Assembly: GCA_016188915.1 (NCBI GenBank)
Contig: JACPGU010000001.1
Coordinates: 34,111-98,110, forward strand
Direction of reading: 5' to 3'
Length of the DNA stretch: 64,000 bases
Source: Candidatus Microgenomates bacterium
GTDB lineage: Bacteria; Patescibacteriota; JACPGU01
The notes under the pieces: model-generated
Database searches by the model: none
Told to the model about the DNA's origin: nothing
The model's input: only the letters and a program-made list of their open reading frames with translations
Translations under genes and position numbers: made by a program
Shown here: piece after piece, positions 2,981-58,566 of the stretch
Layout of the letters: every line of letters starts with the position of its first letter
How positions within the stretch are numbered: the first letter of the stretch is position 1

Positions 2981-3103
2981 GATGAATATAGTTTTATCGT
3001 CGGTCTTAGTGGTTGTGCTTCTCTTTTTTTCTCTGGAGAATAATGGCGTGATTTTTCGCTTTCCAAAATCTATACGACCTATAAGTCACGGCCGTGAGTT
3101 ATA
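2981..3103 (+). CDS. Tiny hydrophobic peptide (40 aa) MNIVLSSVLVVVLLFFSLENNG...; the 3' end runs into palindrome A.
   Basis: RBS aaaaaggaggga upstream of ATG 2981 (alternative GTG 2978). Hydrophobic N-terminal helix. Confidence 0.3.
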
Positions 3104-3112
3104 GGTCGTATA
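3071..3112. promoter_or_regulatory. 42-bp near-perfect palindrome TATACGACCTATAAGTCACG-GC-CGTGAGTTATAGGTCGTATA (palindrome A), operator-like.
   Basis: Read directly from the sequence. The arm CGTGAGTTATAGGT is shared with the palindrome at 14669..14698. Confidence 0.5.
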
Positions 3113-4179: not shown

Positions 4180-4188
4180 TTTTTCCGT

Positions 4189-4233
4189 CCGGGTTTTGCC
4201 CGGATTAACGGGGCCGCAAGGCCCTTTTGTTTT
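4189..4233 (+). terminator. Rho-independent terminator: two GC hairpins (ccgggttttgcccgg; gggccgcaaggccc) followed by a T-run.
   Basis: Stem-loops followed by TTTTGTTTT. Confidence 0.6.
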
Positions 4234-4585
4234 ACCTCTATTTTTTACCATTAAGCCTAAGCCTGCTTTCGCAAATCCCCAAGAGCAAACTTATAGGAAA
4301 TTTATTCGACCGCTAATTCACGATCGTGAGATAGAGGTCGAAAATAGTAAATACCTATCGAGGAAACGAGGAAGGCAGAACGAACATCGTTTGAGCTTAA
4401 TGTTTTAGCCTGGTAAGTGTAGGGAAGGCCGGGGCTTAGTATATTAAAGGATGCCCAAACGTCAGATATCTTTTAAGGGTAATTGTGAAGATTATCTTTC
4501 TAATCTGGTGTATCAGGTTAGGAATAGGGCTATAAGCCCGTAAAAGGGGATATGCCTTTTTATTTTACCCTGTAAAACCTTGACA

Positions 4586-4600
4586 TTATGCTAAAATATG
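4586..4600 (+). promoter_or_regulatory. Candidate extended -10 promoter (aTGcTAAAATat), adjacent to a TTGACA hexamer.
   Basis: TGnTAAAAT motif. The same tatgctaaaatat string occurs upstream of the small gene at 49312. Confidence 0.25.
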
Positions 4601-4893
4601 TTGCAATATGCAAACCTGTCAATGGCAAATAATGGCTAAATAGAGCCAAAGATAGGAGAGGGGAGGGGGGAAATAAGAAAATAAAAAAATAAGAAATTAA
4701 GAAACTAAATGAGTAGGGAATACGAGGCTAGAGATGTCGCACAAGATACCTTTTGCGACATAGGGTGGGGGCTAAACCTGAAACAGAGCCTTTCTCCTTT
4801 GACTATCATCTCGTTTGTTGTTCAGTAGTGTTTTTTATTCAAGCTCCCCTACCCTATGTCGCAAAAGGTCAATCTGATTGGCGATACGGATCC

Positions 4894-4931
4894 GATGTCC
4901 GACATCTGGGCATCCTTTGATGTCGGACATC
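4894..4931. promoter_or_regulatory. Two copies of the 13-bp palindrome GATGTC(C/G)GACATC separated by 12 bp; operator-like tandem site.
   Basis: Read directly from the sequence; center-to-center spacing is 25 bp. Confidence 0.4.
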
Positions 4932-5103
4932 TTTAAATTCGCCAGTCCCCTACTTTTTATTAATTTATTCGCAAAAATTAGCTTAAATCAGGTATAATTT
5001 ACAATTTCCCATTTAAATGCCCCAGGATGTGTTTTTTGTGTCAAAGTGGGGCAAGACTACCTTTTTTACCCAAAAATAACAGTGGTAGTGGCGTAAAGAC
5101 CTC

Positions 5104-5140
5104 AAAAAACCACCCCTAGATATTTCGGAGTGGTTTTTTG
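5104..5140 (-). terminator. Bidirectional rho-independent terminator (aaaaaaccac...gtggtttttt) ending the minus-strand operon 8814->5193.
   Basis: 9-bp stem with a 17-nt loop, flanked by an A-run and a T-run. Confidence 0.6.
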
Positions 5141-5192
5141 ATACATATCCTTACTTTTTTAATTTTTTACTTTCTTATTTTCTTAGCCAGGG

Positions 5193-10074: not shown

Positions 10075-11381
10075 ATGGTTACTAGAAAAAATAAAATCGA
10101 ACTCCTCTCCCCCGCTGGAGATTTGCCGCGACTGAAAACCGCGGTGGCTTTCGGTGCCGATGCGGTTTATTGCGGCTTGCCCCAATGGAGTCTGCGCAAT
10201 ATCCGCGAGATTCAATTCAACGAGGAAACTATCCGCGAAGGTGTCACCTTCGCGCACGAGCGTGGAGTGAAAGTCTATGTTACCTGCAATATCTTTCCGC
10301 ACGAAAGCCATATCAAATTGCTAAAAAAAGATCTGGCAAAATTGAACAAGATCGGTTTTGACGGGATTATTCTCTCTGATATCGGTATGCTTTCTTTGGC
10401 AAAAGAATTTGCTCCGGATATTCCGATTCATCTCTCAACTCAAGCCAATACGACGAATTCCGAAGCGATAAAAATGTGGCAAGTTTTGGGCGTGAAAAGA
10501 GTAATTTTGGCGCGGGAGCTATCTCTCTTAGAAATCAAAAAAATCCACGAAGCCGTGCCGGACATAGAGCTGGAAATCTTTGTCCATGGTGCGATGTGTA
10601 TGGCGTATTCCGGGCGTTGTTTGCTATCCAAACATTATACCGGTCGCGATGCCAATCTGGGCGATTGCGCGAATTCCTGTCGATGGAAATATCAAGTAAA
10701 GAACAAGGCACCGGAAAAAGTTTTCGTGCAAGAAGAAAGTCGGCCGGATGACGCGCTGGAAATTTCGGAAGATGAGCACGGGACTTATTTTATGAATGCC
10801 AAAGACCTTTCCGCCTTGGATATTTTAGACCAAGTGCTGGATAGTGGCGTGGTCTCGGTGAAAATTGAAGGGCGGGCCAAAAGCATTTATTATGTCGGTA
10901 TGATTACGCGCCTTTACCGGCAAGCGTTAGATAGCCTTTACGCCGGTAAAAAAGTGGATGAGAAACTTTTTGCGGAATTGGATATGGTGGCCAATCGTGG
11001 TTACAACCACGGCTTTTTACTCGGTCGCGATGGCTATGAGCAAGAATACGATGTGGCGGCGATCAAACCAAATCTTGATTTCTTGGGACAAGTGTCGGAA
11101 GTTCAAGATTCAAAGTTTAAAAATTATGATATTAAAAATTCTTTAAAAATTACAAAATTAAAAATTAAAAATTACGTTCTTGTCGAGGTAAAAAATAAAT
11201 TTGCCGTGGGTGATGAGGTGGAAATAGTGACGCCGGACCAAATCGTTAAAACAAAAATTACCGAGATTTTTGATAATGGCAGTTTGGTTTCCGAGATCAA
11301 AAAACCCGGTGAAATGGTGGAAGTTTCCTTTGCTATAGGCGAAGGCGTTCCCCCCTACTCTCTAATCAGAAGGAAGAAAAA

Positions 11382-11385: not shown

Positions 11386-12780
<1,395 letters not shown>

Positions 12781-14586: not shown

Positions 14587-14668
14587 AATGAATTTTTAAT
14601 GATAAACATAATCCAATTATAGCATATACTTTTCTAATTTCTAAGACGATGTCATCTTAAGACACATG

Positions 14669-14698
14669 ACCTATAACTCACGACCGTGAGTTATAGGT
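14669..14698. promoter_or_regulatory. Palindrome B: ACCTATAACTCACG-AC-CGTGAGTTATAGGT, about 80 nt upstream of the cupin gene start. Same family as palindrome A.
   Basis: Perfect 14-bp arms; shares CGTGAGTTATAGGT with 3071..3112. Confidence 0.5.
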
Positions 14699-14805: not shown

Positions 14806-15393
14806 TCAACTCTCCAATGCTTCCTCCCACCCTTTGATGATTTCTTCCAAGAGAGGCCTCACTTTCTCGCATTTCAGAGCTTCTTGGAATATCTTGATGG
14901 CGTCAGAGTCTCCCTCACGCACCAGATCCTTCAGGATATCAATGGCGTGGCGGTTCCCCTCTCTCACCAGATCCTTCAAGATCTTGATGGCATCATGGTC
15001 TCCCTCACGCATCAGATCCTTCAGGATATCAATGGCGTGGCGGTTCCCCTCTCTCACCAGATCCTGCAAGACCTTAGCGGCGATGAAGTTCCCCTCATTC
15101 ACCAGATCCTTCAAGATCTTGATGGCATCATGGTCTCCCTCACGCACCAGATCCTTCAGGATCTCGATGGCGCTGGAGTATCCATCATGCACCAGATCCT
15201 TCAGGTTATCAATGGCGTGAGGGTCTCCTGTCCGCACCAAGCTCTTCAAGACCCCGGTGGCGCGGAGGTCTTCTTTGCGCACTTGTTTTACCAGGTCCGC
15301 TATTTCTATTTCTTCTTCCCTCCTCTTGGATGCAAAACGTTCGAGAAGGGCATCAAGCCGTTCTTGTAAAGCCACCAGCAGTTCATTTGACAT
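14806..15393 (-). CDS. Tandem-repeat alpha-helical protein: about 8 copies of the 15-aa unit AI(D/K)ILKDLVREG(D/N)(H/R)(H/D), giving a 45/90-nt DNA period.
   Basis: G-rich RBS (aagggggggggaaagactg) before ATG 15393; terminator downstream. The antisense ORF 14686..15369 is also open but lacks start signals. Confidence 0.55.
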   Translation of the reverse strand: MSNELLVALQERLDALLERFASKRREEEIEIADLVKQVRKEDLRATGVLKSLVRTGDPHAIDNLKDLVHDGYSSAIEILKDLVREGDHDAIKILKDLVNEGNFIAAKVLQDLVREGNRHAIDILKDLMREGDHDAIKILKDLVREGNRHAIDILKDLVREGDSDAIKIFQEALKCEKVRPLLEEIIKGWEEALES

Positions 15394-15528
15394 CAGTCTT
15401 TCCCCCCCCCTTAGCCCTTTTATCAAGGAACAGTATTTCCCGATAATATATCGAGATATTGGCATTATGCTAAAAAACCCTAATATTAGCAAATAGTTAT
15501 GTTGTTTCTTGACCTATAGAAACTACTC

Positions 15529-15559: not shown

Positions 15560-15607
15560 GAGCTACTAAATTCTAAATCCTAAACACTAAATTCTAACCC
15601 CTAAACG

Positions 15608-15988
15608 CTATTTCAAAGCCACTTTCCCTCCTGCCGCTTCGATCTTCGCTTTCATATTTTCGGCGTCTTCTTTTTTCACATTTTCTTTGAGCATCTTCGG
15701 CGCGCCGTCAACCAAGTCCTTGGCTTCTTTGAGTCCCAATTCCGGCAAAACTTCACGGATCGCCTTGATGACATTGATCTTGGCTTCGCCCGAGGCGGTT
15801 AGCTCGACATTGAAAGCGGACTTTTCTTCAGCAGGTGCGGCTGCTTCTCCCCCGCCGGCTGGCATGGCTCCCATCATCATTGGGGCGGCCGCAGTCACAC
15901 CGAATTTTTCTTCCAAAGCCTTCACTAATTCAGCGACCTCGGTTAGCTTCAACTTTTCTATTTCCTCTACGATTTTGTCTATTGCCAT
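15608..15988 (-). CDS. rplL: 50S ribosomal protein L7/L12.
   Basis: [31 protein letters not shown]...[12 protein letters not shown] aggaaggag before ATG 15988. The ORF track extends to GTG 16036 through an AAAATT array. Confidence 0.9.
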
Positions 15989-16031
15989 GATAATCTCCTT
16001 CCTACAAATAATTTTGTAATTTTTAATTTTG

Positions 16032-16096
16032 CCCACGCCTTTGGCGGGGTCCCGCCTACTATTTTATTCTCAAAAAGATGTGGCGGGATAATTTTG
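16032..16096 (-). repeat. Copy 1 of the ~65-nt conserved core element, located in the rplJ-rplL spacer and flanked by AAAATT arrays.
   Basis: About 85-98% identical to 34252..34316 (same strand) and to 51235..51298 (reverse complement). Contains mutually exclusive GC stems: ggcggg/cccgcc/ggcggg. Confidence 0.8.
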
Positions 16097-16173
16097 TAAA
16101 TAAATCTTAATTTTTAAAAATTGAAAATTTAAACATTATTTAAAAATTCAAAAATTAAAAATTGAAAAATTTC

Positions 16174-16692
16174 TCAAACCTGTTTTTCCGAAACTGCCTT
16201 CAAAACATACACCAGTCTTTGGGCAAAATTGTTCATTGCGCCAGCGAAATTATTCCCCGGAGCTTTGACGACCCACAAGAGCTTGGTAAGCAATTCTTCT
16301 TTGTTTGGCAGGTCAGCCAAGGCCTCCATTTCTTCACGATTCAAGAATCGACCTTCATAAAATCCACCGAGGATTTTGATGTTTTCATTTTTCTTGCCGG
16401 CTTTCTTGACTTCTTTCGCGACCGAGACTTCGTCTTGATTGGAATACGCCAAGGCTAGAGACTCTCCACCGACGATTTCTTGGAGTTTTTCTTTGTCGCC
16501 AAAAGCCAATCCCGCCAGAGAAACTTTGGTGACAGTGAATTTCCCGCCTTTGCTTCTCAAAGTTTTTCTCAAGGAATCCAAATCTTCCATCTTCATTCCT
16601 CGATAATCGGTGAAAGTGATGGCTTTGGCGCCGGCAATCTGCTCTTTGATTTTCTCCAGATCTGATTGTTTTTGGAGTTTACTTTTCGGCAT
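16174..16692 (-). CDS. rplJ: 50S ribosomal protein L10.
   Basis: L10 family sequence; start MPKSKL with RBS aaaggaaaaag (ORF track start 16743). Confidence 0.85.
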   Translation of the reverse strand: MPKSKLQKQSDLEKIKEQIAGAKAITFTDYRGMKMEDLDSLRKTLRSKGGKFTVTKVSLAGLAFGDKEKLQEIVGGESLALAYSNQDEVSVAKEVKKAGKKNENIKILGGFYEGRFLNREEMEALADLPNKEELLTKLLWVVKAPGNNFAGAMNNFAQRLVYVLKAVSEKQV

Positions 16693-17613: not shown

Positions 17614-19416
17614 TTAGCGCATAAGAATATGCGTTTTGAGTTTGGTGTTAAATTGATCTATTTTGGTGGCATTACCCTTGGTCGTCATCGTGCAATTGCC
17701 AAGTTTCGTTTTGCCGGTACATTCTGCTTCGCCAATTTTCTCACAATCAGTGATTCTACCATCAGAATCAAAAGACAAAGGTCCCTCCTGGTCGCAGATG
17801 GTAAAGATATCGCCTATCTCAATCGCGTCCTTGTCTCCAGTCGCAAGATAGCACCCCAGGGACATAGTGTCGTTGTTGAAGCAAAAGAAATCGTTCGGCG
17901 TAATCTCTAAAACATACGACTTGGTATTGATGGTGAATTTGTAATCGCAAGGATCACTCATGGCGAACAAATCATCGTTACTGCCGGAACAACCAGAAAT
18001 TTCAGCTGGCAAAGGATGAAAATGCAAAAGACTTCTATCCTTCATAAGCATATTGGGATGACGGCAGCCAGCAATAACAGAGCCTTTTTTCAAAAGGAGC
18101 TCCGATCGGCATAAAAAATAAAAAGACATTCTCTCCTCTACTTTGTCCGCGGTCTCAAAATTGTAGCTCTGACCTTCTGTTGATGCCTTGACTATTCGCG
18201 CGACGATTCTGCCGGATGAAGAGATTTTGTTTTCTTCATCTTTTAAAATCACCGGTCCATTAGTGCGAGGAGTTTCTTCTCCAGCTTTGGGCAGACGAGG
18301 CATTTCGCCAGTCAGCAAAAATGCCGAAGTGATCATTACATAGGGAATCTCCAGAACATAATTGGTAGTCTCACGCAGAATTTCTCTGTCAGTGAAAGAA
18401 AAATCATACCAACCATTGCGGTTTTTGATGATATCCAGCTCTTCGTATTTTTCTCCGTTTTTATAGATGATAAGGCTGGACATAGGATTGAGCAAAGAAT
18501 TTTCACGAGTCTTGAAGCGACCAAATATCTTTGCTTTTCCCTCCTTTACTTCAGAGACTATTTTGCTGGGAGCAGGATCTATCTCCAATTGAGTGATCCC
18601 GCGAGTAGCAATAGTAGAGTGCTCAGACAGAGCCGCCAAGATAGATTCTTGGCTTTTGGTGGCAGCTACAAAAGTTGCCACGCTCTCCCCTGTCGGCAAA
18701 TTAAAAGTGGAGCCAGCTAGTTTACTGTGATAGTCAGCTCCGCCGATGGCGGCTGGCCCGCTATCTTTATTCTGCGCGGACAAAAAAGCCCGGAGATGAT
18801 AGTCGTAATTGTCCACATAGCCAGTAGCGCTAACATCATTCATTAGCTCAAAGCCATCAAAAAGCCGTAAATTATCTTCCCATTTTCGGCAATCTTTCAG
18901 GTGGTTTAAGATGGTAAAAGATTTTTCGCCCTGTAAAATAGCTAAAACTTTTTCCAAATCTTCTTCTCTGTAGGCCGGGTCATAGAGATAGAGATTGGCC
19001 GTTTTGGAGATAGCGTTCAGATGACAATAGCTTTCAGCGGGAACTTTTGCCACCACTATTTCGCGGCCAGCGATAGCGACAAAATCAGAATCGTTCAATC
19101 TTTTTACTGCCTCTAGATAATCCCCAAAAGAATTCACCTCTGGATGCTCATGCGGATAAGGCAGAATATTGGCGAGCCGAATATCTTTATGTCCAGAGGC
19201 GTAGTCGGTCAAAAAACAATCCGCGTGGTCGGTGAAAATAATAGCTTCATAGCCTAATTTCTGCGCTATTTCTTTGACTTTTCGCGGGCAATTGGTGCCA
19301 TCGGAATAACAAGTGTGAACATGCACCCATATTGGCAACATTTCCGACGAATAAATCGCACCTGAAAAAATCAAAAAAAATAGAATCCCCCATATACCAA
19401 CAGCCGTTTTTTTCAT
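17614..19416 (-). CDS. Secreted/membrane-anchored PHP-domain metallophosphoesterase with a Cys-rich C-terminal domain.
   Basis: N-terminal TM segment/signal peptide. PHP motif IWVHVHTCYSDG...IIFTDHAD. The C-terminal ~150 aa carry >12 Cys. Confidence 0.6.
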   Translation of the reverse strand: MKKTAVGIWGILFFLIFSGAIYSSEMLPIWVHVHTCYSDGTNCPRKVKEIAQKLGYEAIIFTDHADCFLTDYASGHKDIRLANILPYPHEHPEVNSFGDYLEAVKRLNDSDFVAIAGREIVVAKVPAESYCHLNAISKTANLYLYDPAYREEDLEKVLAILQGEKSFTILNHLKDCRKWEDNLRLFDGFELMNDVSATGYVDNYDYHLRAFLSAQNKDSGPAAIGGADYHSKLAGSTFNLPTGESVATFVAATKSQESILAALSEHSTIATRGITQLEIDPAPSKIVSEVKEGKAKIFGRFKTRENSLLNPMSSLIIYKNGEKYEELDIIKNRNGWYDFSFTDREILRETTNYVLEIPYVMITSAFLLTGEMPRLPKAGEETPRTNGPVILKDEENKISSSGRIVARIVKASTEGQSYNFETADKVEERMSFYFLCRSELLLKKGSVIAGCRHPNMLMKDRSLLHFHPLPAEISGCSGSNDDLFAMSDPCDYKFTINTKSYVLEITPNDFFCFNNDTMSLGCYLATGDKDAIEIGDIFTICDQEGPLSFDSDGRITDCEKIGEAECTGKTKLGNCTMTTKGNATKIDQFNTKLKTHILMR

Positions 19417-21126: not shown

Positions 21127-21276
21127 AATGTTGTATAATTTTTAATTCTTAATTTTTTAATTTTTAAATAATGTCCTAAATCTTAATTTTTAAACTCAAA
21201 CGCTTTTGTATTCGTTTAGAAATTAGAAAATTGAGATTTATTTAAAAATTAAAAATTACAAAATTTAAAAATTTGA

Positions 21277-22017
21277 TTATATTTTTTTCACCTGCAAGAA
21301 ATCCAGCTCTACCGGGGTCTCGCGACCGAAGATGGAAACCAGCGCCTTGACCTTGCCTTTCTCTTGATCAACTTCACGGACGATAGCCTCCATATCTTTG
21401 AATGGTCCATCGGTGATTTTGACCGGATCGCCTTCCTCCAGATCAATCTTGTATTTTGGTTCCTCCACGCCCATTCTTTTTAAGATAATATCTACCTCAT
21501 CTTCATCGATGGGCACAGGATCGGAGCCAGTACCGATAAAGCCAGTCACATTGGGCGTATTGCGAACAACATACCAGCTATTTTTGGTCATAATCATATT
21601 AACCAAAATATATCCTGGAAAAATCTTTTTTTCTACTTTACGTCTTTTGCCTCCGCGAATTTCTATCTGTTTTTCTTTGGGAACGATTATATCAAAAATT
21701 TTGTCTTTCATATCCAAAGTTTCAATCCTGTGGCGCATAGCTTCAGCGACTTGATCCTCGTAGCCGGAATAAGTATGAACGACATACCATTGGCGGTGAG
21801 TATTGCGATCTTTATCTTTTTCTAGGATTTTACCAAAAGATTTTTTTTCTTTTTCTTCATCGCTTTCTTCTTCCCCCTCCCCTTCCATCATTATCTCTGC
21901 TGCCTTCTCTTCAGATTTCGGCATTTGATCTTCTTTGGGCAAATCAGAAGACAGGTCATCTATGACTACCTGATTGCTCTCTGGCTCATTTTTATTGCTA
22001 GTGATGTCGTCTGACAT
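21277..22017 (-). CDS. nusG: Transcription termination/antitermination factor NusG with an acidic N-terminal extension.
   Basis: NGN and KOW motifs (WYVVHTYSGYE...; GDPVKITDGPFKDMEAIV). Confidence 0.85.
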   Translation of the reverse strand: MSDDITSNKNEPESNQVVIDDLSSDLPKEDQMPKSEEKAAEIMMEGEGEEESDEEKEKKSFGKILEKDKDRNTHRQWYVVHTYSGYEDQVAEAMRHRIETLDMKDKIFDIIVPKEKQIEIRGGKRRKVEKKIFPGYILVNMIMTKNSWYVVRNTPNVTGFIGTGSDPVPIDEDEVDIILKRMGVEEPKYKIDLEEGDPVKITDGPFKDMEAIVREVDQEKGKVKALVSIFGRETPVELDFLQVKKI

Positions 22018-23013: not shown

Positions 23014-23018
23014 ATTAT

Positions 23019-23080
23019 ACTTCACCAAGGTGGCACTTTAGGAAGATCTACTTCACCAAGGTGGCACTTTAGGAAGATCT
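23019..23080. repeat. Perfect tandem duplication of the 31-bp unit ACTTCACCAAGGTGGCACTTTAGGAAGATCT.
   Basis: Two identical adjacent copies between the OmdA stop codon and the convergent terminator. Confidence 0.8.
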
Positions 23081-23091
23081 AATGGAGCAAA

Positions 23092-24193: not shown

Positions 24194-27100
24194 CTATCTT
24201 TTTAAGGCAACAATAATATTCTGACTATCTATTATTTCTTCTTTTTTAATATCAAAATCTTTTACTTTCGTCAAATTGATTTCAGAAAGTTTAGTTTGCT
24301 CTTTTATTTTATCAATAAAGGAATCGAAAACGCCACGAATTTCTTCGCTTTCTGTTTCGATATAGGCCTCCACTTTTTCGTCAAAGTCGTAACGCGCCTC
24401 TTTGCGCGCGTCTTGGATGAGGCGCGTTATTTCGCGCATCAGGCCTTCTTTTTTGAGTTCTGGGGTGATTTCTGTATTTAGGGCGATTGATACTCCCCCA
24501 TCTTCTTTCTCGGCCCAGTTGTCATCGGGGGACAAAGTGTGCTTTGTCTCTAAAGAAACAGATTTGACATTCAATTCATCGCTAATAATGTTTAATAGTT
24601 CAATCTGCAATTTACAATTTACAATTTGCAATTCCCCCAACGGTTGCCTCACCTTAATCCCTTTTTCTTTACGCAAGGCGTGTCCCAACTCCACTATTTT
24701 TTTCACCATTTCCATTTCTTTTCCCAGCTTTTCGTCAATCAATTTTTCATCAAAAGAAGGGAAAGAGGCCAAATGCACCGACTCTTCTCCCATCAGGTTG
24801 CGATAGATTTCTTCGGAGACAAAAGGAGCAAAAGGAGCCAAAAGTTTGGTTATATCGAGCAATGTTTCGTAAAGAACAGCCAAGAAATTGTCGTCCGTCC
24901 TTTTTTTGTTATTGCGCACATACCAAGTGGAAAGTTCTATCGTGAATTCCTCGATGGCGCGAGAAGAAGTGAAAACATCATATTTATCCAAGCTTTCACT
25001 CACTTTTTTGATGAGGCGATTTTTCTTGGAAAGTAGCCAGCGATCAAAAAGAGGTCCCGAGGTCTCGCCTCCGGTGCTCCCGAGGCGAGACCTCGGGGTG
25101 AACTCTCGTGTACTTGCGTAGCCAACAAAGAAAGAGTAAGTGTTCCAGAGGATCAAAAGAAATCTCCTCACTTGATCGCGGACAGAATCTTCGTTCATTA
25201 ATTTGGACTCCCCCGGTTGATTGGCGGTATAGAAAAACCAACGGATAGCGTCGTAGCCATGACTATCACTTAGCTGAACAGGATCTAGAGAATTACCTCG
25301 AGATTTGCTCATCTTTTGCCCCTTGGCATCCAGTACTAGGCCGTTGGAAATGACATTTTTATACGCTGGGCCAAGTTCTAGGATGGTGGAAACAGCCAGC
25401 AGAGTATAGAACCAACCTCGTGTCTGGTCTTGGCCCTCGGCGATGAAATCGGCGGGGAAAAATTTCTTCTCGTCAATTTTTTCCTTATTTTCAAAAGGAT
25501 AATGCCATTGGGCGAAGGGCATACTGCCAGAATCCAACCAGCAGTCAGCGACTTCCGGAGTTCTCGTCATCTCTCCCCCGCATTCGCATTGTAATTTCAG
25601 GCGATCAATAAAAGGTTTGTGGAGATCTATAGATTTTTCATCCGCGAAGACTTCGGAGAAATTGACAGCTTTTTCTTTCAATTCCTCTATACTACCAATA
25701 CAAATAGTCCTTCCGCAACTTTTAGAATTTAGAGTTTCGGATTTAGAGTTTTTAGTTTGGCATTGCCAAAACGGTAACGGCGTTCCCCAATATCTGTCAC
25801 GCGAGATAGCCCAATCCCTGACTCCTTCTAGCCATTCGCCGAAACGACCGTCTTTCATGTGAGCCGGTATCCAATTGACTCGCGCGTTATTTTTTTTCAA
25901 TTTTTCTTTCAATTTACTCATGGCGATAAACCACGAATCTTTAGCGTAGTAGAGCAGAGCCGTGTCGCACCGCCAGCAAAAAGGGTAGTCGTGTTCGTAT
26001 AGTAGTGGCTCGCCAAACAAACCACTAGTTCCAGCGTCACCTTGCTTTTTTAAGTAATCAACGATTATTTTTTCAGTTTCTTTGTCTTTCGCAAGACGGT
26101 TCTCGAGTTCCTCTAAAATTTGATAGCTAGAAGCATAACCGCTTGGAAATGTAAACCTGCCATTCTCGTCTACTGTGTGTACTTTGGGGAGATCAACTAG
26201 TTCTCCCAGAAAATAATCTTCTTCACCATACATAACAGCAGCGTGCACCACTCCTGTACCATCTTCTGCAGTAACAAAGTCTGCTGAGTAAATCCTAAAG
26301 GCATTCTCATATCCTCCTACTTCTGGAGATATCGAGTTGAAGAGCTTTTCATATTCAAGATCTAGATCTTTACCAAGCATTTTAAACGAGAAATTCGTAG
26401 TTTTTAGCACAGCTTCAGCTCTAGAGGCAGCCACAATAAAAGTTTCATCTCCTATCTTTACGGTGCCATATTCTATATTTGAACCAACTGCTAAAGCGAC
26501 ATTACCTGGTAGCGTCCATGGTGTTGTTGTCCATGATAAGATAAAAGTTTTATCGTCTGTGACAGGAGAATCTGTCATTTTAGGATTAAGCAACTGACCT
26601 TTCTTTACCTTAAATTTCACATACACCGAATTTTCCGTCACCTTCTTATACCCCTGCGCTACTTCATGAGAGGAAAGCGCGGTACCGCAACGCGGACAAT
26701 ACGGGACGACTTTGTGTCCTTTGTAAATTAACTCTTTACGGAAGGCCTCCGATAGGATCCACCAGACGGATTCAATATAATTATTATCATAAGTGATGTA
26801 GGGGCGTTCCAAATCCAGCCAAAATCCCATTCTTCGGGTACTTTGTTCCCAGTCCGTTTTGTACTCCCAGACGCTATTTTTGCATTGCTCGTTGAAATCG
26901 GCGATACTTTCTTCGGGGTTCTTTTTCAATGTTTCAATCTGGGGTTTGCCGGAAATATTGAGCTTTTTTTCCACCTCCAGCTCTACCGGCAGACCATGCG
27001 TGTCCCAACCAGCTTTGCGTTCTACTCGGAATCCTTGCATTGTCTTGTAGCGCAAGAAAACGTCTTTCAGCGCGCGAGAGAAAATATGATGAATCCCAGG

Positions 27101-28834: not shown

Positions 28835-29377
28835 CTATTTCACTAGTGCCGTTAGATAATCCAATTCTTTTTCGTCGGCTAATTTCTTTTTGGCAAAAAT
28901 CTCAACAGTTTTGGCGTGGAAAGCATTGTGGCGCTCTTCCTCGCCACGAATAGCGGAAATAATTTTTTCTTCTGACGCGCTGACTTTGGCATCTATTTTC
29001 TTATCAATGACAGAAATAATCTTTTCTTCTGACGCGCTGACTTTGGCATCTATTTTCTTATCAATGACAGAAATAATTTTCTCTTCCGATGCGCTGATTT
29101 TCTTATCAATGACAGAAATAATTTTCTCTTCCGATGCGCTGACTTTGGCATCTATTTTCCTGTCAATCATGGAAATGATTTCCCCCTCGGCTTTTCCCAC
29201 TCTCCTATCGGTGTAATCTTTGAGCTCGGTTTTTAAGCCTTGGGTTTTTTCATCAACAATTCTCTCGACCATATTTTCTACCGCAGGTAATAAAACATCC
29301 TCAGCAAATTCACCGAGCTTTTCGGTCAAAGTCTCACTCAGTTCTTTCTTGGTGACATATTGGTTTTCTTCTGGCAC
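28835..29377 (-). CDS. Tandem-repeat coiled-coil protein: four near-identical 20-aa units (KIDAKVSASEEKIISVIDK-like; 60-nt DNA period).
   Basis: Near-perfect 60-bp nucleotide repeats at ~28960-29200. Confidence 0.5.
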   Translation of the reverse strand: MPEENQYVTKKELSETLTEKLGEFAEDVLLPAVENMVERIVDEKTQGLKTELKDYTDRRVGKAEGEIISMIDRKIDAKVSASEEKIISVIDKKISASEEKIISVIDKKIDAKVSASEEKIISVIDKKIDAKVSASEEKIISAIRGEEERHNAFHAKTVEIFAKKKLADEKELDYLTALVK

Positions 29378-33127: not shown

Positions 33128-33208
33128 AGTAACAGGTGTTAGGTTATAGTTTTTAGGTTTTAGGTGGGGGTTTCTGGTACATTAAGCCAAAAAATCTAAC
33201 ATCTAAAT

Positions 33209-33248
33209 TTTAGAAATTAGAGTAATTAGAAATTAGGTCAATTTTTTT
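33209..33248. promoter_or_regulatory. TTAGAAA / TTAGRNYAA heptad array (TTAGAAATTAGAGTAATTAGAAATTAGGTCAATTTTTTT) upstream of the NYN gene.
   Basis: Same motif family as 28099..28216 and 47324..47358. Confidence 0.4.
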
Positions 33249-34750
33249 ATGATTTTCTTGGCCACCACTAAACCCTCCTTCTTTTTCTGGAAAGTTCCTT
33301 CTAATTGCTGATTATAAACTTCCTCCAGCACTTTTCCAACTACTTTATTACCACTAGTTATCCCCATGAGCTTCATAATGTCGTGACCGGTAATGATTGG
33401 TTTCGGCAAGGGCTTCTTGTTCTCTTCCTCTTCCAGCCAAGACTTGGTTCTGTTGTAAACCGTTAAGTCTGGCGGGAGGATTTGCCCTCTTTTGTTAGTT
33501 CGCAGAGACGAATTGGCGTCCACCCAGAAAAGTTCCAGCAAGTCCGGGAAATAGGGGTGTTTCAAGTACATTATTTTGCGAGCCTCCCGCATTTTGGCTA
33601 GATTGCCAAAAAGCATATGATATTGGACGAGCCATTGGGCTTTGTCAATCTCTTCCCGAGAATATTTTAGTCGGCGCATGATTACTCCCGTCATCTTCGC
33701 GCCGAGAACGTCGTGCCCCGTGAAACGAACGCGGTCAGTGCCGTCTTTTTCTGGGGTTTGAATAGTGTAGGCTTTGGCTAGGTCGTGAAAAAGCACGCCC
33801 AAAGCATAGATGGGGTCGTCGTGCTTTCTCATATTTTTCAGGCAAAGCAACATATGATTCCAGACCGTGCCTTCGGCGTGATGAGAGGGCGGTTGATCGC
33901 AGGTGTGCGACTTGTCTATTTCCGGGATGATGAAATGGAGCAGACCAAGGTCGTCGAGCAATTTTAGCCCATGGCTGGGATTGGGCGAGGTCAAGATCTT
34001 GTTCAGCTCGTCGCGAAGGCGTTCGCCGGAAATTTTCGTAATATCGGCAGAGTGTTTTCTGATCGCGTCAAAGGACTTTTCTTCAATGACGAAATCCAGT
34101 TGCGCGGCAAATCTTGTTGCCCTCATCATTCGCAGAGCGTCTTCTTTGATCCTCTCCTCTGGTTCTCCGATGAATCTGATTGTTTTGGTCTTGATATCGG
34201 CAAAGCCATCAACATAATCAATGATTTCTAAATTTTTAATTTTTAATTTTCCCCACGCCTTTAGCGGGGTCCCGCCTACTATTTTATTCTCAAAAAGATG
34301 TGGCGGGATAATTTTTAAAGAATTTTTGAATTTTGTAATTTTTAATTTTGGATTTTGGATTTTTGCCACCAGTCCATTGATAGTAAAATCACGACGCAAG
34401 ACATCTTCCTCTATCGAAACATTGAATTTTACTTTTTGCGGGTGGCGCTGATCGGCTGTCCCATAATCACTCCTGAAAGTGGCGATTTCAATCAGTTGGT
34501 TGGTTTTTTTCGTCAAAGGCACGATGGCCGCCACCACCCCAAAGCTCTCCCCTATTTCAATATGCTTGACCTTGTTTTTATCCAAAGCTTTGATCGTCTC
34601 TTCCGGTGTGGCGGAGGTAGCGATATCAATATCGTGAATTTTTCGTCCCATAATCTTGTCGCGCACATACCCACCGGCAAACAAGGCAGTGTGACCTGCC
34701 TTTTCTAAAATTTCAATAATTTTTCCAGCGTTTTTTTCTTGGAGAGTCAT
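33233..34750 (-). CDS. cca: CCA-adding tRNA nucleotidyltransferase with an HD domain. Carries an in-frame ~45-aa insert encoded by the repeat element.
   Basis: GGYVRDKIMGRKIHDIDIAT, RRDFTINGL motifs. HD region HHAEG...HDLAK. The insert ...[26 protein letters not shown] lies after the RDFTIN motif. Confidence 0.85.
   Translation of the reverse strand: MTLQEKNAGKIIEILEKAGHTALFAGGYVRDKIMGRKIHDIDIATSATPEETIKALDKNKVKHIEIGESFGVVAAIVPLTKKTNQLIEIATFRSDYGTADQRHPQKVKFNVSIEEDVLRRDFTINGLVAKIQNPKLKITKFKNSLKIIPPHLFENKIVGGTPLKAWGKLKIKNLEIIDYVDGFADIKTKTIRFIGEPEERIKEDALRMMRATRFAAQLDFVIEEKSFDAIRKHSADITKISGERLRDELNKILTSPNPSHGLKLLDDLGLLHFIIPEIDKSHTCDQPPSHHAEGTVWNHMLLCLKNMRKHDDPIYALGVLFHDLAKAYTIQTPEKDGTDRVRFTGHDVLGAKMTGVIMRRLKYSREEIDKAQWLVQYHMLFGNLAKMREARKIMYLKHPYFPDLLELFWVDANSSLRTNKRGQILPPDLTVYNRTKSWLEEEENKKPLPKPIITGHDIMKLMGITSGNKVVGKVLEEVYNQQLEGTFQKKKEGLVVAKKIIKKLT
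34252..34316 (-). repeat. Copy 2 of the ~65-nt conserved core element, in frame within cca and flanked by AAAATT arrays.
   Basis: Differs from 16032..16096 at about one position over 65 nt. Confidence 0.8.
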
Positions 34751-34892
34751 GTGGGATAGTGGATAGTGGATAGTGGATAGTGAATAGACTTACTTTGACA
34801 GAATGATGATATTATACCATTTTTCTCGGGCAAAACAAAAAACCCGCTGGTGAGGCGGGCGAACGCGGAATGAGAACCCGTAAAGGGTGGGT

Positions 34893-42216: not shown

Positions 42217-42248
42217 GAGTATTAAGTATTATGTATTAAGTATTGAGC
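42217..42248 (-). promoter_or_regulatory. TTAATAC heptad array immediately 5' of the clpC start codon.
   Basis: Minus strand reads CTCAATACTTAATACATAATACTTAATACTCGCC-ATG. Confidence 0.45.
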
Positions 42249-45437: not shown

Positions 45438-45450
45438 GGGTTTGGGTTAG

Positions 45451-45472
45451 TATTAAGTATTAAGTATTAAGA
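45451..45472 (-). promoter_or_regulatory. TTAATAC heptad array (x3) 5' of the nusA start codon.
   Basis: Minus strand reads CTTAATACTTAATACTTAATACTAACCCAAACCC-ATG. Confidence 0.45.
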
Positions 45473-47323: not shown

Positions 47324-47358
47324 TTAGAAATTAGGAATTAGGTCAATTAGAAATTTTT
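47324..47358. promoter_or_regulatory. TTAGAAA/TTAGGTCAA heptad array 14-48 nt upstream of the glycosylase start (contains TTGACC on the minus strand).
   Basis: TTAGAAATTAGGAATTAGGTCAATTAGAAATT; same family as the arrays at 28099 and 33209. Confidence 0.4.
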
Positions 47359-47731: not shown

Positions 47732-49102
47732 TTAAACGCTTTTACCGACGATCTCTTTCAGTGTTTTTGTCTCAATGACTTTTGCCTTGCTTTTAATACT
47801 GACACTCTTCGCCATTCTTGGCAAGACGATAGTTTGAAATCCCAAACGAGTCGCCTCTTCAATTCTTTTCTCTAGATTTGGCACCGAACGCACTTCGCCA
47901 GACAATCCCAGTTCCCCAAAAATAGCGGTCTTACTGTCCAACGCTTTATTTTTCACTGCTGAAATTATTGCTAGTGCCACCGCCAGATCCACTGCGTTTT
48001 CCCGCACCTTGATCCCGCCAACGATATTCAAATAAACATCATGGGTGGACAAATCTACCCCCGCTCTTTTTTCGATAATCGCGATCAGGAGATTCAAGCG
48101 GTTCAAGTCATATCCCGAGGCTGTTCTTTTGGGATAACCGAAATAACTTTTGGCCGCCAAAGCTTGAATCTCTACGAGAAAAGGTCGATTGCCCTCAACT
48201 ATCGCCGATACCGCTACGCCAGAGGCGCCCTCCAGCCTTTCCTCCAAGAAAACTTTGGAAGGATTGGCCACCTCCACCATTCCCTCTTGCTCCATCTCAA
48301 ATATTCCCACTTCGGAAGTTTTGCCAAATCTATTTTTTATCCCTCGTAAGATGCGAAAAGATTGATAACGGTCGCCTTCCAAATACAAGACAACATCGAC
48401 CAAATGTTCCAAAGTTTTTGGTCCCGCGATTCCCCCGTCTTTGGTTACGTGGCCGATAATAAAAATGGGCGTATTGGTCGTTTTGGCGATTCTCATCAGA
48501 TTTTCTGTCGCATTTTTCACCTGCGCGATAGAACCGGAAGCGGAAGCGATATTGGCCGAATAGACCGTTTGAATAGAATCCACAATGACCAGATTGGGCT
48601 TTTCTGTCTCTATCGTGGCCACAATATTTCCCAAATCGTTTTCAGAAAGCAAGAAAATTTTCTCCTCTTTGATCTTCAATCTTTCCGCTCGCAGTTTTAT
48701 CTGTTGCGCCGATTCTTCCCCGGAAATATAGAGAATTTTTTCAATATCTTTATTTTTGGAAATGCCGACCAAAGATTGTAAGAGTAGGGTTGATTTGCCG
48801 ATCCCCGGATCGCCTCCGAGCAGGACGAGCGATCCTAGCACCACTCCCCCGCCGAGGACGCGATCGAATTCACCGATATTGGTTTTTATCCTCTCAAAAT
48901 TCTTGCTATCTACTTTGTCCAGAGAAATAAGTGGCGAAGCCCTACCTCCACTTTCCACTTTCCACTTTCCACTTTTCCCTGTCGCGACAACAGGAACTTC
49001 CTGCAAGGAATCCCAGTTTTGGCAAGCTCCACATTTCCCCTGCCATCGGACATACTCCGCCCCGCAGGAATTACAGACAAATTTTGAACTAGCCTTTGGC
49101 AT
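47732..49102 (-). CDS. radA: DNA repair protein RadA/Sms.
   Basis: N-terminal CxxC-x-CxxC zinc ribbon, Walker A GDPGIGKSTLLLQ, KNRFG motif, Lon-like C-terminal domain. Confidence 0.9.
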   Translation of the reverse strand: MPKASSKFVCNSCGAEYVRWQGKCGACQNWDSLQEVPVVATGKSGKWKVESGGRASPLISLDKVDSKNFERIKTNIGEFDRVLGGGVVLGSLVLLGGDPGIGKSTLLLQSLVGISKNKDIEKILYISGEESAQQIKLRAERLKIKEEKIFLLSENDLGNIVATIETEKPNLVIVDSIQTVYSANIASASGSIAQVKNATENLMRIAKTTNTPIFIIGHVTKDGGIAGPKTLEHLVDVVLYLEGDRYQSFRILRGIKNRFGKTSEVGIFEMEQEGMVEVANPSKVFLEERLEGASGVAVSAIVEGNRPFLVEIQALAAKSYFGYPKRTASGYDLNRLNLLIAIIEKRAGVDLSTHDVYLNIVGGIKVRENAVDLAVALAIISAVKNKALDSKTAIFGELGLSGEVRSVPNLEKRIEEATRLGFQTIVLPRMAKSVSIKSKAKVIETKTLKEIVGKSV

Positions 49103-49690: not shown

Positions 49691-49722
49691 ATACCTAATA
49701 CCTAATACTTAATACCAACTCC
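49691..49722 (+). promoter_or_regulatory. TTAATAC-type heptad array ending ...TTAATACCAACTCC immediately before ATG 49723.
   Basis: ATACCTAATACCTAATACTTAATACCAACTCC-ATGG; near-identical to the context at rpmF (58252..58284). Confidence 0.45.
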
Positions 49723-50931: not shown

Positions 50932-52265
50932 TGATAAAGGCAAAAATAGAAAAACTAGTTTTTGGCGGACAAGGTCTTGCGCACATTGATGCCAAGACCT
51001 TTTTGTTATGGAACGCTTTGCCGAGCGAAGTGATGGAGGTGGAAAACTGGAAGAAAAAAGCGGGGATTTTTGATGGTATTGCGAAAAATATCATGGGGCC
51101 TTCTCCTCGCAGAATAGAGCCGAAGGAAAATCATTTCCTCTCCTGTTCTCCGTGGCAAATAATGGACTGGGAATACGAAAACGAACAAAAGATAGAGATT
51201 GCCAAAGAAACCTTTGAAAAAATTACAAAATTAAAAATTGTCCCGCCACATATATCTGAGAATAAAATGGTAGGCGGGATCCCGCTGGAAGCGTGGAAAA
51301 ATTTAAAAATTACGGCTAACAAGTCGTCTTACGGTTATCGCAACAAAATGGAATTTTCTTTTGCGGAAACGGATGGACAGATAACGCTGGCGCTTTTTGG
51401 TCGTGGCTCACACGAGAAAGTGCCTCTCACTGGTTGCGAATTGGCGCATCCGGCTATTAATAGAACTGCGCGAGAAATTTTGGCTTGGATCAATGAAGCG
51501 AAAATTCCTCTCCGCTCACTAAAAACTTTGATTGTTCGTAGTAATCAAAAAGGCGAGACGCTTGCGGGATTGTTTTTGAAAGATCGCCTACCGCAAATTG
51601 TCGCAAATTTAAGCGAATTATCACAAAAAATACAAGGCTTCTGGATCTATTATTCCACGCACCAGTCCCCTGCTTCCGTGCCAACCGAGTTGCTCTATCA
51701 CGAAGGCGCGGATTTTTTGGAAGAAGAAATTTTCGGGAAAAAACTGCGCTATGGACTCTTCAGTTTTTTTCAAGTCAATGTGCCGGTTTTTGCCAAAGCT
51801 CTCGCGGATATGGCGGATTTTGTTAAGGATACCGCGAATATTTTGGACTTATATAGTGGTGTCGGCGCGATAGGGATTTGCTTGGCTGATAAAAATCAGC
51901 GTTTAATTTCGGTTGATAACAATGAGGAGTCTATTAATTTCGCTAAACGAAATACTGGACTTAACGGAATGAAAAATTGCGAGGCCATTATCGCTTCCAC
52001 AGAAAAAGCGCTAGATCTGATAATGCCAGATCAAATATTGATTTTGGATCCTCCCCGTTCTGGCTTGCACAAAAAAGTGATTGAAAAAATCCTGGAAATT
52101 CAGCCCAAAAAAATAGTTTATTTATCATGTAATCTCTCAACCCAAGCCAGAGATGTGTCTATGCTTAATACTAATTACTTAATACTTGATACTAGTTTGT
52201 ACAATTTCTTCCCCCGCACTCCACATATTGAGGGACTAGTAATTTTGGAGAAAAAAGAGACCTAG
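50928..52265 (+). CDS. RumA/TrmA-family 23S rRNA (uracil-5-)-methyltransferase. Carries an in-frame insert encoded by the repeat element.
   Basis: TRAM-like N-terminus; SAM motifs LDLYSGVGAIG, DPPRSG. Insert ...KITKLKIVPPHISENKMVGGIPLEAWKNLKIT. Confidence 0.8.
   Translation: MMIKAKIEKLVFGGQGLAHIDAKTFLLWNALPSEVMEVENWKKKAGIFDGIAKNIMGPSPRRIEPKENHFLSCSPWQIMDWEYENEQKIEIAKETFEKITKLKIVPPHISENKMVGGIPLEAWKNLKITANKSSYGYRNKMEFSFAETDGQITLALFGRGSHEKVPLTGCELAHPAINRTAREILAWINEAKIPLRSLKTLIVRSNQKGETLAGLFLKDRLPQIVANLSELSQKIQGFWIYYSTHQSPASVPTELLYHEGADFLEEEIFGKKLRYGLFSFFQVNVPVFAKALADMADFVKDTANILDLYSGVGAIGICLADKNQRLISVDNNEESINFAKRNTGLNGMKNCEAIIASTEKALDLIMPDQILILDPPRSGLHKKVIEKILEIQPKKIVYLSCNLSTQARDVSMLNTNYLILDTSLYNFFPRTPHIEGLVILEKKET
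51235..51298 (+). repeat. Copy 3 of the ~65-nt conserved core element (reverse complement relative to copies 1 and 2 on + coordinates, so the same orientation relative to its host gene).
   Basis: aaaattgtcccgccacatatatctgagaataaaatggtaggcgggatcccgctggaagcgtgga is about 85% identical to the reverse complement of 16032..16096. Confidence 0.8.
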
Positions 52266-58214: not shown

Positions 58215-58251
58215 TTTACAAAAATAGCTTTTTGTTCTATACTCAATACGT

Positions 58252-58473: not shown

Positions 58474-58566
58474 TTTTTATAATTTTTAATTTTGTAATTT
58501 TTGAAATAATTCCTTAATTTCTAATGTTTAAAAATTAGGATTTAAGGCTTATTTAAAAATTAAAAA

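Follow-up and report, generated by a model that had tools for sequence, protein, structure and literature searches.

Heptamer arrays and small palindromic elements in the spacers and housekeeping genes of a Candidatus Microgenomates genome

The DNA analysed here, hereafter the window, is a 64,000-nucleotide stretch from a Candidatus Microgenomates bacterium (assembly GCA_016188915.1, contig JACPGU010000001.1, positions 34,111 to 98,110). Short tandem arrays of a 7-nt unit are scattered through its spacers and are also read in frame within genuine housekeeping genes, a double occurrence that a reading of the sequence alone had already pointed out. Two palindromic elements accompany the arrays, one AT-rich and composed of inverted arrays, the other with a GC-rich core lodged inside arrays. 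We consider it probable, though well short of certain, that these are tiny non-autonomous palindromic elements carried on heptamer arrays, which are copied, undergo slippage in a 7-nt register and are filtered by selection. We regard them as selfish or neutral DNA that the host tolerates rather than as switches.

Heptamer arrays and two palindromic elements

Near-exact tandem runs of period 7 occur 13 times in the window against none expected, with essentially none at the other periods between 3 and 12. Tandem Repeats Finder (TRF) returned 39 period-7 rows where third-order Markov shuffles yield 2.8, together with 14 period-8 rows (3.1 expected) that mostly mark the identical AT-rich loci; no other period shows an excess comparable to that at 7. 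The period is 7 nt with some 7/8 irregularity. Because it is 7, codon periodicity is ruled out as its source; a coding artefact would yield periods of 3, 6 or 9. An assembly or sequencing artefact was likewise rejected, as similar arrays are present in independent NCBI, JGI, ENA and Logan assemblies with the downstream conserved domains in frame.

At least 15 unit sequences are spread over about 45 loci in the window. AAAATTA is the commonest, and others include TTCTAAA, AATACTT, AAGTGGA, TTCAAGA, GGATAGT, CTCAAAA and AAAACCT. All the tracts picked out in the sequence-only reading, in peptidase U32, tRNA-guanine transglycosylase (TGT), pseudouridine synthase, IleRS and four spacers, exist at or near the places where it put them. 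Its AAAATT family, however, has a unit of 7 rather than 6 nt and represents one of the many units, and the array it gave as (cttgaatc)n in the pseudouridine synthase is a perfect heptamer, (TCTTGAA)x4.4. The typical array has 4.3-4.4 copies and spans ~30 nt. Copies within typical arrays of 3-5 units are 70-100% identical, and only about five arrays are perfect, the longest of these with 4.4 copies. Arrays cover ~10.6% of intergenic bases versus 1.2% of coding bases. Identical units recur between loci in 55 pairs, against 1 for random and 11 for AT-matched heptamers; similarity at up to one mismatch (132 pairs versus 103 ± 15 AT-matched) is not significant, so that only the recurrence of identical units is.

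The arrays are a clade-wide feature at the syntenic loci of relatives. The nearest of these, hereafter the sister genome, is a metagenome-assembled genome (MAG) labelled Saccharibacteria (TGT 65-72% and CCA-adding enzyme 76-82% identical), sampled over ~19 kb; farther relatives are labelled CPR3 or Patescibacteria, and synteny with the window holds in all. The relatives' loci are numbered L001-L016, that of the sister being L014. Period-7 TRF rows number 22 in L010 (1.4 expected), 15 in L011 (0.6) and 10 in L012 (0.2), and L001, L007 and L008 carry 7-13 per 10 kb. Among the sampled loci of other phyla there are none, with the sole exception of one Omnitrophota locus. This locus, L002 (MAG JAGVGJ010000009), has six period-7 rows in 13 kb, the other control loci from outside the Candidate Phyla Radiation (CPR) having none; uncultured lineages may host heptamer arrays independently in several places.

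The AAAATTA tracts belong to a dispersed palindrome of ~80-150 nt, in which a non-periodic centre separates a T-rich arm, (TAATTTT)n, from an A-rich one, (AAAATTA)n. The spacers are not filled by plain arrays, as had been supposed, but by inverted pairs of arrays that fold as long A·U hairpins (arms ~25-57 nt; fold z-scores -3.2 to -5.1). Four spacer copies align end to end, the non-periodic centre included. The spacer copies, to which no strand is assigned, are:

16096-16176: short copy in the rplJ-rplL spacer, with inverted repeats, placed by the family alignment; a fold of 16037-16173, which takes in the adjacent GC-core hairpin, has z = -3.5
21128-21278: copy in the nusG-rplK spacer, with an extra 26-nt loop hairpin; arms 57 nt, z = -5.0
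58462-58592: copy in the rpmF-nusB spacer; z = -5.1; 84% identical over 100 nt to 59460-59559
59436-59568: copy in the nusB-rnc spacer, with inverted repeats; z = -3.2

An interrupted 22-mer, AAAAATTACAAAATTAAAAATT, has three exact matches, in the U32 coding sequence (CDS), the methyltransferase CDS and the rpmF-nusB spacer, and 11 matches (0 expected) when up to two mismatches are allowed. Independent slippage is unlikely for these sites because it would not yield identical interruptions. Homology to the A-rich arm extends to the U32 and TGT inserts (85-88% over 56-76 nt). Moreover, L010, whose TGT is ~62% identical, carries the family at other, non-orthologous spacers (rplL-tgt and rplK-rplA), with ~81-82% identity over 120-130 nt to the window copy at 21128 and a mean column identity of 76% in a four-way alignment that includes the L010 copies. 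The family is essentially absent from the sampled ~19 kb of the sister genome. Since non-periodic sequence and specific interruptions are common to loci and genomes, the AAAATTA tracts are, to judge from these alignments, copies of a dispersed element and not independent slippage products. The whole element is an inverted repeat, and its flanks are themselves arrays.

Two of the tracts that had been taken to be read through in frame lie outside the proteins. The true start of rplL is the ATG at 15991, behind a GGAGG Shine-Dalgarno (SD) site, the Pfam L12_N domain beginning at residue 19 of the extended open reading frame (ORF); nusB has an in-frame ATG at 58591, seven residues ahead of its Pfam domain, and the 3' arm of the 58462-58592 copy produces a spurious extension of its ORF. 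The tracts in the extended L12 ORF and at the NusB N terminus are almost certainly untranslated, being artefacts of ORF extension, whereas those in U32 and TGT, and also in IleRS and the pseudouridine synthase, are genuinely internal.

The second element has a GC-rich core, CCCACGCCTTTGGCGGGGTCCCGCCTACTATTTTATTCTCAAAAAGATGTGGCGGGA, of ~65-87 nt lying inside AATTTTN arrays at three places in the window. Three copies, 85-95% identical, compare with none expected, and the core folds as two hairpins (z = -3.1 as RNA, -3.9 as DNA):

16009-16095, no strand assigned: copy 1, in the 5' untranslated region of rplL, outside the CDS, with AATTTTN flanks; 95% identical to 34229-34315
34229-34365, minus strand: copy 2, a composite in frame in the CCA-adding enzyme, with AAAATTN arrays on either side
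51218-51312, plus strand: copy 3 with an AAAAATT array, in frame in a tRNA/rRNA U5-methyltransferase; encodes EKITKLKIVPPHISENKMVGGIPLEAWKNLKI

Both coding copies have the same orientation and frame and yield a common peptide, KLKI(I/V)PPH..ENK(I/M)VGG.PL.AW..LKI. The composite in the CCA-adding enzyme is a clean 43-residue insertion between residues 158 and 161 of PDB 6ibp, and three states of this site can be distinguished. The insert is absent from non-CPR and some CPR proteins; many relatives, the sister included, have an insert of ~20 residues made of heptamer array; and array plus GC core is found in the window genome only. At the DNA level the sister shows a 79-nt gap exactly at the GC core with the array kept, which constitutes an empty site. 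Composite repeats are also duplicated between insert sites of one gene in L008 (74 nt, 94.6%) and L001 (128 nt, 79%).

Inserts within conserved enzymes

About 19 of the ~45 array loci (~40%) lie in frame inside the CDSs of conserved enzymes, at internal loops of TGT, U32, IleRS, LeuRS, the CCA-adding enzyme, RadA, an RluB-like pseudouridine synthase and the U5-methyltransferase. In addition to the two GC-core copies, they include the following, where pLDDT is the per-residue confidence of an AlphaFold2 model:

11102-11176, plus strand: U32 insert, an A-rich half-copy of the AT element; peptide DSKFKNYDIKNSLKITKLKIKNY; 85% identical over 76 nt to 59443-59517
11866-11926, minus strand: TGT site 3, an A-rich half-copy; 87.5% over 56 nt to 59447-59502; low-pLDDT tail at residues 297-302
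12101-12182, minus strand: TGT site 2, inverted (CAGATTn)x4 / (ATCTGAA)x4, a palindrome within the CDS with arms 83% complementary; pLDDT <50 at residues 212-225
12434-12463, minus strand: TGT site 1, (TTTCTAA)x4.3; pLDDT <50 at residues 96-124
11692-11722, minus strand: TGT site 4, (TTCTAAA)x4.4, with the in-frame TAA changed to CAA; pLDDT <50 at residues 353-361
61598-61628, minus strand: pseudouridine synthase (RluB/F-like), perfect (TTCAAGA)x4.4, encoding RFKIQDSRFKN; net gain 7 residues, that is 21 nt or three units
48947-48975, minus strand: RadA, perfect (AAGTGGA)x4.1, encoding KSGKWKVESG in the variable linker between Zn ribbon and ATPase domain; net gain only ~2 residues
24608-24633, minus strand: C-terminal region of IleRS, (TAAATTG)x3.7, in an ortholog-variable stretch with little net change in length
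25721-25751, minus strand: IleRS, (TTCTAAA)x4.4, encoding KNSKSETLNSK
57058-57085, plus strand: LeuRS, (CTCAAAA)x4, within a ~22-residue insertion relative to T. thermophilus LeuRS
57318-57348, plus strand: LeuRS, (AAATAAC)x4.4, encoding KSQITNSKSQT in a region ~8 residues longer than the solved structure
52164-52193, plus strand: U5-methyltransferase near its C terminus, (CTTAATA)x4.3

Comparison with orthologs shows several of these segments to be additions. The U32 insert is missing from the same site in the L007 and L008 orthologs, in a protein with 5-6 hypervariable sites, and the inserts in U32, LeuRS, the CCA-adding enzyme and the pseudouridine synthase are all ortholog-variable insertions. 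The four TGT sites, each coincident with heptamer arrays, are gaps against solved TGT structures and against TGTs of other phyla, and relatives have other sequences and lengths at the same four sites, or no insert. The AlphaFold2 model of TGT (pLDDT 77; predicted template modelling score 0.81) is least confident at these four segments. Mapping the inserts onto structures, the check proposed in the sequence-only reading, thus bears out its suggestion of tolerated loops: they are K/N/S/I/L-rich, occupy ortholog-variable positions and, in TGT, fall in structural gaps modelled at low pLDDT. Beside insert 4, at 11723-11744 in the TGT CDS, lies a hairpin with a perfect 10-bp stem, ctctctgggtttacccagagag, which encodes a W.YP motif seen only in relatives that have insert 4.

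The inserts are open in the frame of their host. That in U32 has no in-frame stop, as against 2-4 in each other frame; taken together, the segments within CDSs have no stop in 237 in-frame codons, compared with 15-28 in each of the other five frames. The in-frame TAA of the consensus is replaced by TAT, TAC or CAA in the coding copies, and KNY and RNY motifs recur because of this replacement (by TAT or TAC). The sense strand is A-rich (A:T = 299:149), the peptides are 23% Lys and also rich in S, N and Q, and KIKNY-type peptides are common to the U32 and TGT inserts. The lack of in-frame stops and the change of TAA to TAT or TAC suggest that the inserts are translated. Their removal at the RNA or protein level was considered and judged unlikely because the reading is open in the host frame only.

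Origin and possible roles of the repeats

Under the reading that we favour, the repeats in the window would be very small, non-autonomous elements peculiar to this lineage and put together from short tandem arrays of a 7-nt unit. At least two processes would shape this population. Preformed elements would spread to new sites, whether through copy-paste transposition, through templated insertion or through gene conversion, and local changes in the 7-nt register would add or remove units and bring about concerted turnover. The AT element would have been copied into several spacers and its A-rich half-elements into coding sequence, and the second, GC-rich two-hairpin core would insert into AT arrays. 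Selection would be permissive in spacers. Genic copies would survive if their length is a multiple of 3 nt, if the host frame runs through them without a stop, if their hydrophilic A-rich strand is the sense strand and if they fall in a permissive surface loop or linker; the survivors would be translated as K/N/S/Q-rich peptides, presumably without function.

Several points weigh against this reading. No transposase, RAYT (REP-associated tyrosine transposase), reverse transcriptase or other mobilising enzyme was found by Pfam among all 65 ORFs of the 64-kb window. A target-site duplication is undefinable because the insertions lie within arrays, and low-complexity AT sequence inflates the similarity between copies. 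Outside the window genome, a metagenome scan gave no match to the GC core and a profile search with the element peptide no candidate; the GC-core element appears confined to this genome. Some arrays look constrained rather than neutral, as with the 32/32 identity upstream of the NYN-domain gene and the retention of a start-proximal position while the unit changes (both below), and the ~13 start-proximal arrays, G-poor on the sense strand, suggest a cis-regulatory role for part of the population. The model leaves the 7-nt period itself without explanation, and it takes translation of the inserts from their reading frames. As for mobility, L012, a relative that also has heptamer arrays, encodes at 18565-19104 a 179-residue IS200-like Y1 transposase (PF01797), which is a candidate RAYT-type mobiliser but only a lead.

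The start-proximal arrays, about 13 in number and ending 0-13 nt ahead of a start codon, include:

33134-33165, minus strand: (AAAACCT)x4.6, 6 nt upstream of the NYN-domain gene
34754-34787, minus strand: (CACTATC)x4.9, 3 nt upstream of the ATG of the CCA-adding enzyme
42218-42244, minus strand: (AATACTT)x3.9, 4 nt upstream of clpB
45449-45471, minus strand: (AATACTT)x3.3, 11 nt upstream of nusA
49691-49716, plus strand: (ATACCTA)x3.7, 6 nt upstream of an NTP-transferase gene
58239-58277, plus strand: (ATACTTA)x5.6, 7 nt upstream of rpmF; 3' flank CCAAYTCMATGG in common with the 49691 copy
47324-47355, minus strand: TTTCTAA-type x4.3, 13 nt upstream of a methylpurine glycosylase gene

Two further arrays overlap stop codons:

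15565-15610, minus strand: (AATTTAG)x4.6, over the rplL stop codon, with a GC-rich terminator-like hairpin after it
33210-33236, minus strand: (TTTCTAA)x3.6, over the stop codon of the CCA-adding enzyme

The intergenic subset could consist of functional cis-elements, with the copies in CDSs as spill-over. We rate this alternative as clearly less probable than not, though serious, and it is partly compatible with the selfish-element reading. Arrays abutting starts would be unstructured, G-poor, SD-independent leaders or protein-binding sites, and the A·U hairpins would punctuate operons as terminators, RNA-processing sites or RNase III sites. Indeed, none of the 11 annotated genes behind the 13 start-proximal arrays has an SD site, compared with ~15 of the remaining 54, and G makes up 4% of their sense strand versus 18% in upstream regions elsewhere. 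Ahead of the NYN-domain gene, the array is identical to that of the sister over 32/32 nt, the sister having exactly one extra unit, despite divergence of the spacer farther upstream. At the ATG of the CCA-adding enzyme the sister has (CATAATT)x4.3, so position, register and length are kept under a change of unit; the change from CACTATC to CATAATT is, on this comparison, a case of concerted turnover. Hairpin pairs of differing sequence occupy the orthologous spacers of all relatives, and TAACTGA heptamers just upstream of start codons in Beggiatoaceae (PMC4679880) provide a precedent.

Each of these signs has a counterweight. Short spacers force any 30-nt array near a start codon, and ~75% of genes lack an SD site anyway; an SD motif is recognisable in only ~15 of the 65 window genes, with rplK and rpmF among the ribosomal protein genes that have none. 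Sense-strand C exceeds G in only 9 of the 13 start-proximal arrays (p = 0.27, not significant). The many unit sequences speak against recognition by one binding protein, ORFs tolerate these elements as well, and the hairpins lack the GC stem and U-run of intrinsic terminators. A separate observation concerns the (AATACTT)n arrays, which precede four unrelated genes, two of which have in common the 3' flank CCAAYTCMATGG through the start codon and a similar upstream sequence, TTTnTTGTnnTAT; with their common flanks these arrays look like a portable leader or promoter module.

A bolder proposal, which we hold to be doubtful, is an active heptamer system at the level of the clade. Arrays would be regenerated in a 7-nt register 5' of start codons and as intergenic hairpin pairs, serving as SD-independent leaders and operon punctuation, and an enzyme with a 7-nt step would also seed disordered loops in core enzymes. 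If so, the repeats would be a functional, lineage-defining genome feature and not junk.

It is improbable that these are ordinary local microsatellites, grown in place by slippage with a 7-nt bias, without dispersal and with the likeness of loci due to compositional convergence. A polymerase footprint has reportedly been suggested by Mrazek as the source of such a bias. Single-locus units and perfect arrays do exist (TCTTGAA, GGATAGT, CTCAAAA, CGCTTAC), the pseudouridine synthase array amounts to exactly +21 nt or three units, and the array at the NYN-domain gene differs from that of the sister by exactly one unit; heptamer over-representation among bacterial simple sequence repeats (SSRs) is already known, according to work cited in PMC4692102. 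Slippage in place, however, does not account for interruptions and a non-periodic centre common to loci and genomes, for a GC-rich core in three copies with an empty site in the sister, for 74-128-nt composites that recur at different insert sites within one gene, or for the 55 identical-unit pairs against 11 in the AT-matched control, and stepwise growth by 7 nt is impossible in essential ORFs.

Still less probable is that the inserts are adaptive, as new disordered, Lys-rich loops that aid RNA binding or other interactions of tRNA- and rRNA-handling enzymes in the manner of Borg repeats (PMC9879509 provides the precedent). Many of the hosts do act on RNA (TGT, IleRS, LeuRS, the CCA-adding enzyme, the U5-methyltransferase and the pseudouridine synthase), the Lys content of the peptides is high, and all four TGT sites are occupied in many relatives. 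Most large genes of the window, however, encode RNA enzymes anyway, insert sequence and length are not conserved among orthologs, some relatives have no inserts at all (P0017, P0134, P0137), and the composition is simply that of the A-rich strand of elements which abound in spacers too.

Phase variation by on/off switching of repeat number, raised in the sequence-only reading, which saw slippage-prone tracts, can be set aside as scarcely credible: 7 nt is not a multiple of 3, so that unit changes shift the frame, and heptanucleotide phase variation exists in Haemophilus (as described in PMC2651432 and PMC8262952), but the arrays here have only ~3-5, mostly imperfect copies, sit at internal loops of housekeeping or essential genes present in single copy, and stay stop-free and in frame across species-level divergence. 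In essential genes such as ileS and leuS, the gain or loss of one unit would shift the frame with lethal effect. Neither a long near-perfect tract nor a position at the 5' end of a surface, virulence or restriction-modification gene, the marks of a contingency locus, was found. Tract length was compared in same-species assembly pairs of relatives rather than of the window genome itself: L008/L009, L011/L013 and L014/L015/L016 show no indel at ~26 arrays over ~22 kb, a weak comparison because the pairs differ by only two single-nucleotide polymorphisms in that length. A metagenome scan with the flanks of the long TGT array of L011 found one contig, 100% identical over 8.2 kb and uninformative on variation. 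For the window genome, an exact look-up returned no match for the U32 protein, and the TGT and CCA-adding proteins were each found once.

Genomic setting and comparison with known systems

The window has a GC content of ~42% and an ORF coverage of ~88%. Its housekeeping genes comprise the secE region with nusG, rplK, rplA, rplJ, rplL, tgt, peptidase U32, ileS, leuS, hisS, the CCA-adding enzyme, ftsA, ftsZ, clpB, nusA, radA, rpmF, nusB and rnc; VirD4-like proteins and a type IV secretion system pilin are also encoded. The nusB gene is a fusion, a single ORF at 58591-59433 (280 residues) joining NusB to a NUDIX hydrolase domain. No tRNA genes were found in the window, and Rfam gave no known RNA family, also in a separate check of the ORF-free segment 4150-5250.

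Within this segment lies an inverted pair of arrays:

4671-4708, plus strand: (AAATAAGA)x4.8, with its inverted partner (CTTACTTT)x4.5 at 5150-5185 and a ~440-nt ORF-poor segment between them

The surrounding ~1 kb (4180-5190), without a convincing ORF, contains a hairpin with 24-nt arms that are 96% complementary (4748-4771 / 4846-4869), and could be an undescribed noncoding RNA or a degraded element. Between the convergent U32 and tgt genes, 11386-11427 holds a GC-rich palindrome, aggacacgacgttcgacgtcgtgtcc (15-nt unit x2.1), which is probably a bidirectional terminator. A small dispersed palindrome unrelated to the heptamer families, GACCTATAAGTCACGGCCGTGAGTTATAGGT, occurs twice (3076-3106 and 14668-14698) as a 31-nt perfect-palindrome-type sequence with 93.5% identity between the copies, and 23018-23081 is a perfect 31-nt direct repeat x2.1, TACTTCACCAAGGTGGCACTTTAGGAAGATC. 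Longer tandem repeats are found in two ORFs. At 14891-15267, repeats of 45/90/135 nt run ~7 times within an ORF of 228 residues (14806-15492, minus strand) that has a weak HEAT-repeat match; they are 15-residue repeats at the protein level, separate from the heptamer arrays. The ORF at 28835-29377, between ftsZ and cobA, encodes 180 residues without a Pfam match and consists largely of 45/57/102-nt tandem repeats (28956-29181); the sister has only a ~125-nt spacer at this position (L014 9312-9437), and the ORF is therefore lineage-specific.

The genomes of CPR/Patescibacteria are tiny and usually called streamlined, yet about one-tenth of spacer DNA and loops of essential enzymes hold these repeats. 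For annotation, the repeats cause spurious N-terminal ORF extensions, inflated protein lengths and fragmented matches to hidden Markov models, and they may explain some of the 'CPR-specific insertions' in conserved proteins. They also offer a natural experiment in the birth of protein loops from non-coding repeats. Selfish DNA inside protein genes, known mainly from Rickettsia, is extended to a very different lineage with reduced genomes, as is to CPR bacteria the heptamer-repeat phenomenon of cyanobacteria, Beggiatoaceae and Xanthomonas.

The closest parallel for the in-frame copies is the Rickettsia palindromic elements (RPEs), which, as presented in PMC10969869 after Ogata et al. (2000, Science 290:347), are small palindromes in spacers and in frame in housekeeping genes. 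On that account, both consist of small, non-autonomous palindromic repeats that occupy spacers and also stand in frame within unrelated housekeeping genes, both keep one orientation and frame with a conserved peptide, and both occupy fold-compatible surface loops in a host with a reduced genome. The window accordingly shows a multi-copy hairpin element, in-frame insertion with a conserved peptide, and insertion relative to orthologs at predicted surface sites. Compared with RPEs as described there, the present elements are shorter (~65-87 nt for the GC core, ~80-150 nt for the AT element). They are moreover built from or embedded in 7-nt arrays, the AT copies within CDSs are half-elements, the host is a CPR bacterium and there is a handful of copies in 64 kb. 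Given the AT-heptamer composition and the CPR host, sequence homology to the RPE families of Rickettsia is very unlikely.

Cyanobacterial short tandemly repeated repetitive (STRR) heptanucleotide sequences with nested small dispersed repeats (SDRs), reportedly described by Mazel in 1990 and by Elhai and colleagues in 2008 in Genome Res 18:1484, a paper cited in PMC3116915, are the nearest parallel for the arrays. The canonical STRR units of heterocystous cyanobacteria are CCCCAGT, TTGGTCA and CAACAGT. Both systems are said to have scattered, mostly intergenic 7-nt arrays, tiny hairpin elements nested in them and lineage-restricted families, and the window does show a 7-nt excess that is mainly intergenic. 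Neither the canonical units nor a cyanobacterial host is found here. In contrast to STRRs as they are reported, the units are AT-rich and far more diverse, the arrays have a characteristic short length and many form inverted pairs, the phylum is another, and ~19 of the ~45 loci are in frame inside conserved enzymes.

Other systems share single traits. The TAACTGA direct repeats of marine Beggiatoaceae, cyanobacteria and Bacteroidetes (MacGregor 2015, PMC4679880) also have 2-6 heptamer copies, mainly between genes and in many cases only a few nucleotides ahead of SD-less starts, ribosomal-protein operons included, with occasional copies in ORFs; that system, in contrast, has one dominant unit, its copies in ORFs are located at protein termini or within hypothetical proteins, and palindromic composites are absent from it. 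REP (repetitive extragenic palindromic)/REPIN elements, mobilised by RAYT (Y1) transposases (Bertels & Rainey 2011, PMC3116915), likewise consist of short palindromic doublets able to form hairpins; they too are non-autonomous, scattered through spacers and homogeneous within any one genome. REPINs, however, are extragenic, GC-rich and RAYT-linked, whereas several copies here enter ORFs and the 65 window ORFs include no RAYT. Borg tandem repeats, which generate disordered protein regions (PMC9879509), resemble the present ones in being pervasive, fast-evolving tandem repeats in spacers and ORFs that add low-complexity or disordered segments; their units in ORFs are multiples of 3 in long perfect arrays, whereas here the unit is 7 nt, the arrays are short and the frame is kept through total length. 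The GGGNATC heptamers of Xanthomonas and Nostoc (Rehm et al. 2015, PMC4692102) are similarly a lineage-specific intergenic SSR excess with some inverted pairs, and vary in length and sequence between related species, but they are G-rich, G-quadruplex-capable and intergenic only.

A full-text literature search yielded no account of heptamer arrays or in-frame palindromic elements in CPR/Patescibacteria. Heptamer SSR excess in other phyla (PMC4692102) and in-frame selfish palindromes in Rickettsia are known already, and the present elements are probably not sequence members of the RPE or STRR/SDR families. What is new is the combination of both phenomena, the diversity of the units, the nesting of one element in another and the host lineage.

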